A DNA stretch of 63,370 nt, filler included, from a bacterium (GCA_027063545.1; 15 parts of 15 records of this genome joined end to end with filler, not necessarily neighbours in it); one strand, 5' to 3'. Positions 38,317 through 42,127 are shown, numbered from the whole stretch's first letter. Numbers and translations: made by a program. The notes: generated by a model not told the origin, from the letters alone.

Positions 38317-38459
38317 GCCTCCTTTATATCCTTTCTAAATATATTATAAATTTATATATATAGGAATTCAATAGAAAATTCTAATATAGATATATTTTTT
38401 GAATTAATATTGAACTTTATTAATATTGAATTTAAAAGAAATTATAATTAAAAAAATAA

Positions 38460-38532
38460 TAGCGGCGTTGGGACTCGAACCCAAGACCCAGGGATTATGA
38501 TTCCCTTGCTCTACCAACTGAGCTACGCCGCC
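38460..38532 (-). tRNA. tRNA-Met(CAT), elongator type
   Basis: Reverse complement GGCGGCGTAGCTCAGTTGGTAGAGCAAGGGAAT-CAT-AATCCCTGGGTCTTGGGTTCGAGTCCCAACGCCGCTA; paired position 1, no initiator GGG/CCC anticodon-stem end. Confidence 0.93.
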
Positions 38533-38684
38533 ATCCTAATAACAATCTCAACTTCTAGTACAGAAATATAATTTTTAAAATTGATTTTTTCAAGATTTTC
38601 AATATATAAAAAATAGTTAAAAATAACTATTACATTAAGTTGTGAATTTAATCATAACCATATCTTATTAATTACTAAATATTT

Positions 38685-38732
38685 ATACTATATATAGTAT
38701 TATTTATAAAAAAATACCACAATATATAGTAA
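38685..38732. promoter_or_regulatory. Tandem NrdR boxes
   Basis: ATACTATATATAGTAT (38685) and CCACAATATATAGTAA (38717), 32 bp apart, upstream of nrdD; consensus acaCwAtATaTwGtg. Confidence 0.85.
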
Positions 38733-38840: not shown

Positions 38841-40999
38841 ATGTCTGTAAAAACTACAAAATTGAAATTTATAAAGAAAAGAGATGGAAGACTTGTAGCT
38901 TTTAATCCTGAAAAAATAGTAAATGCTATAATGAAAGCTCAAAAAGCTGTAGGATATGAAGATAGGCAAGAGGCAGAAAAAATTACAAAAAAAGTTATAG
39001 AAGTATTGGAGTTAATTTTTAAAGGTGAAGATGCGCCTACTGTTGAAAATGTACAAGATTTAGTAGAGAAATTCTTAATAGAAAGTGGAAATGCTGATGT
39101 TGCAAAAAGATACATCTTATATCGTCATCAACATGCAGAACTTAGAAACATTAAGAAACTTCTTGAAGGTGCTATAGAGTTAGTGGATTCATATCTAACA
39201 AAAAGTGATTGGAGAGTAAGAGAAAATTCAAATATGAGTTTTTCTCTTCAAGGATTAAATAATCACATATCCTCACAAATAACCCAATATTACTGGTTAC
39301 ATAAAATATATCCTCCTGAAATAAGAGAAGCTCATCTATCAGGGGATTTTCATATTCACGATTTAGGGCTCTTATCTGTATATTGTTGTGGTTGGGATCT
39401 TCAAGATTTACTTTTTAGAGGATTTGGTGGTGTTCCAGGAAAAGTTGAATCTAAACCTCCTAAACATTTTAAAACAGCTCTTGGACAAATTGTAAACTTT
39501 TTCTACACAATGCAAGGGGAAGCAGCTGGAGCTCAAGCTTTAGCAAATTTTGATACATATTTAGCTCCTTTTGTTGCTTATGATAATCTATCTTACAAAG
39601 AAGTTAAACAGGCTATGCAAGAGTTTATTTTTAATTTAAATATACCTACAAGAGTTGGTTTTCAAACACCATTTACAAATCTAACAATGGATTTAAAAGT
39701 ACCTAAAAATATGGAAAATCAACCTGTTATTATTGGGGGCAGTTTCTGGGATGACCATGTATATGGAGAATTCCAAAAAGAAATGGATATGATAAACCGT
39801 GCCTTTGCTGAAGTTATGATGGAAGGAGACGCAAAAGGTAGAATCTTTACATTCCCTATTCCAACATATAATATCTCTAAAGATTTTGAGTGGGAAAATC
39901 ATAATCTTGATCCTATATGGGAAATGACTGGAAAATATGGAATTCCTTATTTTGCTAACTTTATAAATTCAGATATGGATCCTGAAGATGCAAGAAGTAT
40001 GTGTTGTCGTTTAAGACTTGATAATAGAGAATTAAGAAAAAGAGGAGGAGGTCTTTTTGGTTCAAATCCATTAACTGGATCTATAGGGGTGGTAACAATT
40101 AACCTACCTAGAATTGCTTATCTATCAGAAACAGAAGAAGAATTTTTTGATAGACTAGCTAGACTTATGGATTTAGCAAAAGAATCTCTAGAAATTAAAA
40201 GAAAAGTATTAACTAAATTTACAGAAGAAGGGCTATATCCTTACTCTAAAGTTTACTTAGAGGGAATAAAAAGACGCCAAGGAGACTACTGGGCAAATCA
40301 TTTCTCTACAATAGGCCTTGTTGGAATGAATGAAACTTGTCTTAATCTATTTGGGGAAGATATAACATCTGTAAAAGGTAGAGAGTTTGCTATTAGAGTA
40401 CTTAAATTTATGAGGGATAGAATTCAAGAATATCAAATTGAAACCGGAAATTTATATAACTTAGAAGCTACACCAGCAGAAGGTACATCATATAGACTTG
40501 CAAAGATAGATAAAGAGAAATTTCCTGATATTATAACATCTGGTAAAGATAAGCCTTATTATACTAATTCTACTCAATTACCTGTAAATGCTACAGAAGA
40601 CATATTTGAAGCTTTAGAACATCNNNNNNNNNNNNNNNNNNNNNNNNNNNNNNNNNNNNNNNNNNNNTTAATTAATTAANNNNNNNNNNNNNNNNNNNNN
40701 NNNNNNNNNNNNNNNNNNNNNNNTTACAATCTTTATATACAGGAGGAACTGTTTTACATATATTCTTAGGAGAGAAAATTGATGATGTTGATACTGTTAA
40801 ATATTTAGTTAAAACAATTGCTGAAAATTACACATTACCTTATTTTTCCCTTACACCAACATTTAGTATCTGTCCTATCCATGGATATATACCAGGAGAA
40901 CATGCTGAATGTCCTATCTGTAAAGCTGAAAAAGAACAAAAATTAAAATTAGAATTGAAAAAATTAGAAAAACAATTACAAATGTTAGAAGGAAAATAA
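38841..40999 (+). CDS. nrdD: Class III (anaerobic) ribonucleotide reductase catalytic chain, lacking the glycyl-radical loop; spans the linker at 40624..40723
   Basis: ATP cone (IKKRDGR), HIHDL, YCCGW, RSMCCRL, EATPAE, YYTNST; after the gap LQSLYTGGTVLH...CPIHGY...CPIC-KAEKEQKLKLELKKLEKQLQMLEGK*. Confidence 0.93.
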
Positions 41000-41000
41000 A

Positions 41001-41165
41001 ATGAATAAAGAGGAATTACTAAAAAAAATAAAAGAAATAAAAAAAGAAATGAAAAATATAAGAGGTACAGAGACTAAAGTTGTATATAGAATCGGATGTA
41101 GAGAATTTGACAAAGACCACACCATTGAAAATGGTGTTATAATAAACTTAAATAACAAAAAATAA
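41001..41165 (+). CDS. 54-aa paralog of the NrdD glycyl-radical subunit lacking the RxxGY motif (not in the ORF track)
   Basis: MNKEELLKKIKEIKKEMKNIRGTETKVVYRIGCREFDKDHTIENGVIINLNNKK*; starts 1 nt after the nrdD stop, AAGGA RBS; 16 of first 30 aa identical to 41184..41381. Confidence 0.75.
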   Translation: MNKEELLKKIKEIKKEMKNIRGTETKVVYRIGCREFDKDHTIENGVIINLNNKK

Positions 41166-41183
41166 TCAAAAAAGGAGTGTAAA

Positions 41184-41381
41184 ATGAACAGAGAAGAATT
41201 AATGAAAAAGATTCAAGAATTAAAACAAGAGCTTGAAAATGTAAAAGGTACACCTACTGAAATCTACTCAAGAGTTGTAGGATATTATAGACCTGTTCAA
41301 CAATGGAATGATGGAAAGCAAGAAGAATTTAAAGAAAGAAAAGTATTTAAAGTATCAACACCTGTAAACTCTAATACATAA
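41184..41381 (+). CDS. Stand-alone glycyl-radical subunit of class III RNR
   Basis: TEIYSRVVGYYRPVQQWNDGKQEEFKER is the NrdD C-terminal radical loop; AAGGAG RBS; N-terminal heptad helix. Confidence 0.92.
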   Translation: MNREELMKKIQELKQELENVKGTPTEIYSRVVGYYRPVQQWNDGKQEEFKERKVFKVSTPVNSNT

Positions 41382-41383
41382 TT

Positions 41384-42127
41384 ATGATTACAGAAAAGTT
41401 ATCTAAACAAGAAATAAACTCCCTGGAAGCCTTACCTATTTATGGCTTTCAGGGAGTAACTCTTATAGATTTCCCTAAACATCAGGCATCTATAGTTTTT
41501 ATTGGTGGATGTAATCTTAGATGTCCATATTGTCATAACAAAGAATTAGTATTTTTAAATCCTAAAGATAGACTTGATTACAAAAATATTTTAGAAAAAA
41601 TAGAGAAACGAAAAAAAATAATAAATGGGGTATCTATAACTGGTGGAGAACCTCTATTATATGATGAAATCTTTGATTTTATAAAAGTATTAAAGGAAAA
41701 ATTACAATTAGAGGTTAAAATTGATACAAACGGAACTAGGTATAAAAGATTGGAATATATAATTGAAAATAAACTTGTTGATTACATTGCAATGGATTTT
41801 AAAACAATACCTTCAAAATACAAATTACTGGGAATCCAATCAGAAGAAGATTTGGAAAGTATTCTTATCTCTGTAGACATTCTTAAAAAAACAGATATCC
41901 CAAATGAATATAGACTTACTGCTGCGCCTTATATTATTGAAAAGGATGATCTGGAAGAATATGGAAGCATAGTTAAAGGTGGGCAAAAACTTTTTATACA
42001 ACAATTTTATCCTAGAAATACCCTATCCGATGAATATCTAAATGTTAAGCCTTATAATATAAAAGAGCTAGAAAAATTTGCTCAAATACTATCAAAATAT
42101 ATTCCTACTAAAATTAGAGGAATATAG
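41384..42127 (+). CDS. nrdG: Anaerobic RNR activating enzyme (radical SAM)
   Basis: TLIDFP, GCNLRCPYCHN, ITGGEP, KIDTNG, DYIAMDFK. Confidence 0.93.
   Translation: MITEKLSKQEINSLEALPIYGFQGVTLIDFPKHQASIVFIGGCNLRCPYCHNKELVFLNPKDRLDYKNILEKIEKRKKIINGVSITGGEPLLYDEIFDFIKVLKEKLQLEVKIDTNGTRYKRLEYIIENKLVDYIAMDFKTIPSKYKLLGIQSEEDLESILISVDILKKTDIPNEYRLTAAPYIIEKDDLEEYGSIVKGGQKLFIQQFYPRNTLSDEYLNVKPYNIKELEKFAQILSKYIPTKIRGI

Follow-up and report, generated by a model that had tools for sequence, protein, structure and literature searches.

Glycyl-radical enzymes have their main weak point at the radical glycine, where oxygen cleaves them. The locus described here raises the question of whether an anaerobic ribonucleotide reductase (RNR) can carry that glycine on a small chain of its own, how such a chain would be held on the rest of the enzyme, and whether it could be exchanged once damaged. 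The locus lies within a stretch of 63,370 nucleotides from a bacterial genome (GCA_027063545.1; hereafter the window), in which separate contigs are chained by N-linkers at 14 joints and the order across linkers is generally untrustworthy.

The large subunit, its stop codon and the small gene

The large subunit matches the Pfam models NRDD (6e-163, 543.9 bits) and ATP-cone (5e-23) and scores above the cut-offs of PRK08270 (947 bits) and TIGR02487. Its barrel carries finger-loop cysteines in the motif SMCCRL (residues 386-391), which corresponds to the MCCR type of double-cysteine class III enzymes in the available text of Burnim et al. (bioRxiv 10.1101/2022.04.23.489257). A CxxH...CxxC zinc finger precedes the position of the radical loop. 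The loop itself sits on a separate ORF and not at the C-terminus of the same chain, and an NrdG activase gene is adjacent, giving the gene order nrdD, small gene, nrdG (Table 1). Read from its sequence, the locus encodes a class III (anaerobic) RNR as two polypeptides, with the cut falling after the zinc finger and before the glycyl-radical loop.

Table 1. Features of the split nrdD locus, in coordinates of the window
Feature	Position	Strand	Evidence or remark
Two NrdR-box-like palindromes, 32 bp apart	38685..38732 (38685, 38717)		5' of nrdD
NrdD large subunit, residues 1-594: ATP cone and catalytic barrel	38841..40623	+	Pfam, PRK08270
Assembly linker between contigs C64 and C65, inside nrdD	40624..40723		N run
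NrdD large subunit: last barrel strands and zinc finger	40724..40921	+	Pfam NRDD
Zinc finger CPIH..CPIC	40871..40921	+	sequence alone
C-terminal heptad helix of the large subunit and stop codon	40922..40999 (TAA 40997..40999)	+	
54-aa ORF, partial tandem duplicate of the small gene, likely decaying	41001..41165	+	
65-aa small subunit with radical loop RVVGY	41184..41381	+	
Codon of Gly33	41280..41282	+	
NrdG activase, radical SAM, NrdG2 type	41384..42127	+	TIGR02495 179.9 bits, cut-off 131.15

An assembly linker, which the original prediction does not mention, interrupts nrdD. The two nrdD pieces cover positions 1-458 and 463-532 of Pfam NRDD and the 65-aa ORF covers 532-562, which places the loss at the linker at about 8 bases (Pfam positions 458|463). 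A contig of metagenome run X1 begins 8 letters before 40724. P0071, the closest relative among the matches listed, bridges the gap with three residues, and we therefore treat the two pieces as one gene from which about 8 bases were lost.

Downstream of the linker, the frame 40724..40999 encodes the zinc finger and a 25-residue tail and then ends in TAA. Three hydrothermal-vent metagenome runs contain the stretch, and contigs from two of them cross the stop with identical letters and no gaps: X1 (40724-41375), possibly from the source sample, and X3 (40831-41329). The stop is thus not an assembly error. P0071, which is 84% identical over the tail, also stops after a helix. We regard the split itself as almost certainly real.

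The 65-aa product comprises a helix (residues 1-21), a strand, the RVVGY loop with Gly33 and a C-terminal helix region, and it contains no Cys or His. An AGGAG precedes its ATG. The ORF matches NRDD in Pfam and the NrdD models of NCBIfam, and no PFL or GrcA model is among the matches listed. Scored for heptads, the core helix was equalled by 5 of 500 shuffles and the small-subunit helix by none of 500; the score is ad hoc, with thresholds placed in the gap after the first scores had been seen. The original prediction, namely that NrdD stops after its zinc finger with an added heptad helix while the loop is encoded separately with its own ribosome-binding site and an N-terminal heptad helix, is thus borne out on both counts by the frame, the Pfam matches, the contigs, the AGGAG and the heptad score.

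The NrdR-box-like pair upstream of nrdD comprises the only window sites with 2 mismatches to an NrdR-box consensus; at up to 3 mismatches, the window holds 23 matches as compared with 22.3 by chance. An nrdR gene is present in the genome. A tRNA-Met gene (38459..38533, minus strand) sits just upstream of the nrdD promoter region. A search for internal promoters or terminators at the locus gave nothing usable (24 promoter-like sites, 20.8 expected), and no RNA run was listed as containing the stretch. A class I or II large subunit (PF02867) was not found in this 82.7% complete genome, and the split class III enzyme may therefore be its only RNR. Among the genomes searched, this one has no kin closer than domain level.

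Probable pairing of the helices on either side of the cut

The 91-aa core tail, used as a query, matched 5336 proteins. In 118 of the best 120 the tail stops beyond the zinc finger and has no radical loop, a count to be read knowing that the query itself selects for such tails. Nearly all of these 118 carry a similar helix, including proteins from Hippea and Treponema, and Deferribacter desulfuricans has a helix-bearing 64-aa homolog of the small subunit.

Loci were collected from genome, viral and metagenome scans and from genome searches with helix-bearing queries (best 30 or 80 each). In the first set, we counted 60 distinct split pairs with adjacent genes, the ends of 134 distinct one-chain enzymes and 27 small ORFs with no core beside them. 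Both helices are present in 32 of these pairs and neither in 28, with no mixed pair. With thresholds fixed beforehand, 60 further loci from two other phyla yielded 50 new pairs, 33 with both helices, 15 with neither and 2 discordant, the latter being a helix-less tandem extra copy in G483 and one core just below the cut. Overall, 65 of 110 adjacent pairs have both helices, 43 neither and 2 are discordant, counts that are inflated by kinship. In the comparison of split with fused enzymes proposed with the original prediction, the two helices are jointly present or jointly absent in 108/110 split pairs, and 132/134 distinct one-chain loci have a short linker. The viral scan gave 24 loci, 20 of them one-chain and four small-only, one of which has the helix.

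Phylogeny reduces the number of independent observations. On starred branches, only two independent contrasts of helix with helix are available, and both agree (p 0.5). When 79 cores, each trimmed at the zinc finger, are placed on a tree, one-chain enzymes lie interspersed with those of the helix type, which requires 8 changes, 4 of them forced by starred branches. A single origin of the helix type was rejected by the AU test on this quick LG+G4 core tree (p 1.4e-69). The helix type therefore does not form one clade, and has been gained or lost, or its 3' module exchanged, several times.

We counted core positions from the last Cys (+) and small-subunit positions from the E of EIYSR (-). Both partners show a conserved a/d heptad. 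On the core, the a/d positions are +8, +12, +15 and +19, the first three of which are hydrophobic in 32/32 first-set cores; on the small subunit they are -20, -16, -13, -9 and -6, with -16 and -13 hydrophobic in 32/32. If the helices pair antiparallel, the a-d' layers give a position sum of -1. Charge patterns at e-e' or g-g' are the expected signature of antiparallel coils. Core +16 and small -12, both e positions, exchange charge across the first 32 pairs (r -0.76) and again across 34 later pairs (r -0.87, cut 0.74), where they rank second of 289 column pairs. Fourteen of these later pairs are basic/acidic, 13 are acidic/basic and one is like-charged; the window itself is acidic/basic (E, K). 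The g-g' pair +11/-17 comes next (r -0.65 and -0.62). On a tree of 62 rows, 6 changes are required to account for the acidic/basic state, and seven independent pairs give five that agree, none that oppose and two without difference. At p 0.0625, the charge swap is therefore strong yet below formal significance. The net charges of the whole helices show no anticorrelation between core and small subunit (rho -0.16, p 0.38).

The re-fused enzymes give the same register. G080 encodes a split enzyme whose stop and start overlap in ATGA, while its sisters G079 and G078 encode one chain in which the two helices follow each other; relative to G080, they have lost 11 and 44 nt, respectively, across the overlap. 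The three cluster together with support 100. The junction of G079 recurs in P0116 with substitutions and is therefore inherited. In G078, three residues link core +16 to small -17, and in G079 core +23 abuts small -24, so that both sums are -1. We note that L295 (G079:C15), P0116 and P0124 in the re-fusion clade are very long NrdD frames (1863, 1268 and 1100 aa), and that P0116 and P0124 have precomputed hits to PF14528/PF14890, which we take to be intein/homing-endonuclease families.

AlphaFold2 models of the natural re-fused chains place the helices at 61-77/81-93 and 61-84/88-103, with a 3-residue turn between them. The pLDDT of this block (76-93) is the highest of the models in that part, and since the alignments are shallow we read the models for secondary structure only. 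Foldseek found no match to the re-fused C-terminal model in the PDB at E 0.001 or better. A complex prediction of core 44-91 (A3) with small 1-58 (A2) reached 0.28 against a mark of 0.32 with controls not folded, and is not evidence either way. In sum, the joint occurrence of the helices, the heptads, the charge swap and the re-fusions suggest that the core helix very probably docks on the small-subunit helix as an antiparallel coiled coil, and the zipping of the radical subunit onto the core proposed in the original prediction is well supported by this comparative evidence.

Split enzymes without the helices often appear to be held in other ways. One Cys of the second zinc-finger pair lies on the core and a matching Cys on the small subunit in 11/28 helix-less pairs of the first set and in 15/15 of the later set. 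This Cys is found five places before the E, the site of the fourth ligand in one-chain enzymes. These 26 splits thus appear, from their cysteine patterns, to share a zinc ligand between chains, a layout seen in 0/32 helix pairs. The small subunit of the window has neither Cys nor His, which leaves the helix as its only evident extra dock. Loci of the class cut within the zinc finger, with three ligands on the core, are L176, L182, L190, L244, L253, L258, L263, L265, L279, L014, L162 and L309-L326.

A third split class was also observed, in which CPxxH at the end of the core is followed by an acidic motif of a few residues and the small subunit opens with a short basic strand (L003, L004, L075, L127, L167, L184, L185, L188 and L189). 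At L159 and L160, the helix-type small subunits are about 175 aa long and carry a C-terminal CPGC part that looks thioredoxin-like by eye; nested in the same branch of the tree are clostridial one-chain NrdDs whose C-terminal part resembles this one.

Possible exchange of the radical-bearing piece

By homology, NrdG would put the radical on Gly33. In the proposed mechanism, the core helix packs on the small-subunit helix, core +16 (E) and small -12 (K) forming an e-e' salt bridge, and the coiled coil would replace the covalent linker, keeping the radical loop against the zinc finger while the mobile domain moves out of the barrel and back in. The radical domain of P. copri NrdD, comprising zinc site, loop and tail, is described as very mobile and as frequently invisible except in the active state (available sections of PMC11226230). 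During movements of this kind, a loop on its own chain would come away if nothing held it, so that the coiled coil likely fastens it to the zinc finger.

Oxygen cuts glycyl-radical enzymes at the radical glycine, according to the accessible parts of PMC8683613 and PMC3019208. Here it would sever just the 65-aa piece and spare the core of about 690 aa. The helix is N-terminal to the cleavage site, so the stub (residues 1-32) would keep it and repair would require exchange. We infer that the stub, having lost its barrel contacts, could be displaced by an intact copy with loop and tail contacts. That the helices pair as an antiparallel coiled coil and that a cleaved small piece can also be swapped for a new one is, taken together, rather likely in our judgment.

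Relatives provide the evidence that bears on exchange. A second small-subunit match is found in 3/37 genomes of the phylum of G041, namely G079, G080 and G081, which are three of the four genomes of one clade; none of the other 33 genomes of the phylum has two. The helix is retained in all three second copies, each of which is followed immediately downstream by a Dps/ferritin-like gene. Their surroundings also encode a Fur/PerR-like regulator and desulfoferrodoxin (L289, G079:C20), a flavodiiron protein, peroxiredoxin and desulfoferrodoxin (L290, G080:C14), or peroxiredoxin (L291, G081:C173). As the NrdD of G079 is itself a re-fused single chain, its extra copy stands beside a one-chain enzyme in a layout like that of GrcA. 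In two other phyla, two matches occur in 1/35 and 1/33 matching genomes, one of which is G370. Helix-type copies beside stress genes were seen in a single clade. The original prediction also proposed that such docking makes the oxygen-sensitive part cheaply replaceable. The stress-linked copies in 3/4 clade genomes speak for this part of it, whereas the window's genome (82.7% complete) yielded no second intact copy, its sole intact loop lying in the nrdD operon. Replaceability of the oxygen-sensitive piece is therefore plausible, with support from relatives.

Other stand-alone loops were observed. G042 has two helix-bearing copies without an adjacent core (L292 on C6 and L293 on C39) in phage-like regions with integrase and DUF5675 genes, and the viral contig L150 likewise encodes a helix-bearing small subunit without an adjacent core. 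A 99-aa helix-less NrdD-loop protein is encoded directly 5' of rubrerythrin at L296 (G178:C136:2957-3253) and L297 (G333:C49), in G178 also downstream of desulfoferrodoxin. This protein is present in 4/4 genomes of that order, two of which add a loop match in a frame of 804-805 aa.

Among known systems, the closest is one-chain NrdD with NrdG (T. maritima 4COI/4U3E, P. copri 8P23, phage T4 1H78; 9D3X), with which the locus has in common the ATP cone, the barrel, the double-cysteine finger loop, the zinc finger, the RxxGY loop and the adjacent NrdG. In T. maritima NrdD, three residues separate the matched stretches (612, 616), whereas here the chain is cut and a helix is added at each end. RNR alpha is also made from two polypeptides in class II NrdJa/NrdJb of P. 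aeruginosa and class I NrdA of phage Aeh1, as reported in the available text of PMC3267527. In contrast to the present case, these belong to other classes, have other cut points and separate no oxygen-cleavable glycyl radical. Split phage nrdD genes have been attributed to introns, inteins or unexplained fragmentation (available part of PMC3653736).

Like GrcA/YfiD of E. coli and Y06I of phage T4, the small subunit would be a small free-standing radical-loop protein acting in trans on a large barrel. For spare parts of the GrcA type, the duplicate docking element must displace the damaged one (PMC8683613, in the sections available). However, GrcA backs up an intact one-chain PFL, whereas here the small piece is the enzyme's only radical loop; an extra copy beside an enzyme with its own loop is found in G079 and not in this genome. 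By sequence, the small piece belongs to the NRDD family with a predicted coiled-coil dock and not to the GrcA/YfiD family, though it may work like a member of it. Formate lyases are named as the only glycyl-radical class with identified spare parts in the accessible text of a 2026 review (PMC13450708), and Andorfer et al. (PMC8683613) leave open, in the part available, whether spare parts exist beyond PFL. Our full-text literature search, which covered the main texts of mostly non-subscription papers, turned up no account of an NrdD whose radical loop is a subunit of its own or of the helices; the available portions of PMC4390871, PMC4493059, PMC9669993, PMC3653736, PMC3019208 and PMC12288474 do not mention the split.

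A two-piece NrdD with a defined docking helix makes the question of spare parts beyond PFL testable and offers a 65-residue NrdG substrate for activation studies. Many anaerobe genomes contain short NrdD-loop ORFs with the appearance of fragments, and these may likewise be genuine subunits. More broadly, and tentatively, class III RNR may have repeatedly evolved a disposable radical subunit with at least two docks, the coiled coil and the shared zinc site, the coiled-coil form being a repair system. Once oxygen has cut the small piece, a fresh copy, supplied in some lineages from stress genes or prophages, might zip onto the core, even onto a re-fused NrdD; this wider reading as a whole stands, for us, slightly short of an even bet. 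If it is true, spare parts would for the first time be known beyond pyruvate formate-lyase, and with them a route to repairable glycyl-radical enzymes.

The main competitor grants the docking and denies the repair: the split would be neutral or regulatory, the coil a tight substitute for the linker, and the cleaved stub would stay bound, so that damaged enzyme is broken down and not repaired. Every piece of docking evidence fits this account equally, and the helix, being N-terminal to Gly33, outlasts cleavage. Re-fusion happens and is tolerated, the helix type is scattered among one-chain enzymes, and most helix-type genomes have a single copy inside the nrdD operon. Against such an account stand the second copies among oxidative-stress genes in 3/4 clade genomes, one of them with a one-chain NrdD, and the prophage-like regions (G042) that carry the helix-bearing piece alone. 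The helix is also just two to three heptads long, and coils of that length usually exchange fast. We hold a pure tether to be unlikely.

A further account keeps the two chains and gives up the pairing: the helices would self-associate or bind another partner such as NrdG, and the small subunit would dock by its strand and loop alone. Both helices share an I-x-x-L pattern and align on each other; in the mixed MAFFT alignment of cores, small subunits and re-fusions (A6), the core helix fell on the small helix, and the alignment was dropped. Since the two are alike enough to be aligned in this way, self-pairing is possible. Moreover, 7/28 helix-less pairs have a complete CxxC, no shared Cys and no evident extra dock. 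Against this stand the joint presence or absence of the helices in 108/110 pairs, the charge swap across subunits and the re-fusion that leaves three residues between the helix ends, and we judge unpaired helices to be quite improbable.

That the stop is erroneous, or that a frameshift or read-through joins the frames into one chain, might be suspected from the fragmented assembly with its gap within nrdD and from the ATGA overlap of the two genes in many relatives, but it is already largely refuted, and has a negligible chance of being right, given the unchanged stop in contigs of two runs, the 118 of the best 120 homolog tails without a loop (from a query that selects for such tails), the 184 nt and another ORF between stop and start, the small gene's own AGGAG and the conservation of both helices at free ends.

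A partial duplicate of the small gene

The 54-aa ORF between the two genes, likewise absent from the original prediction, repeats roughly codons 1-31 of the small gene in tandem; it retains the helix and lacks the radical loop. Over codons 1-22, 50/66 nt are identical, and several of the changes are synonymous or conservative. An AGAAGGA precedes its ATG, and its heptad score was reached by 0/500 shuffles. Similarity to the small gene ends after codon 31, and the part downstream was matched by 208/500 shuffles. Contigs of three runs span the ORF. In the protein collection searched, it has no homolog but itself.

We considered a conserved decoy as an alternative and disfavor it, because the ORF has no homolog and its tail cannot be aligned to the small gene; for the same reasons, a decaying tandem duplicate is the likely reading of this sequence. 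If expressed, the product could still act locally as a radical-less decoy that occupies the core helix. A tandem extra copy of the small gene was also seen in G483, where the loop is kept and the helix is seemingly lost.
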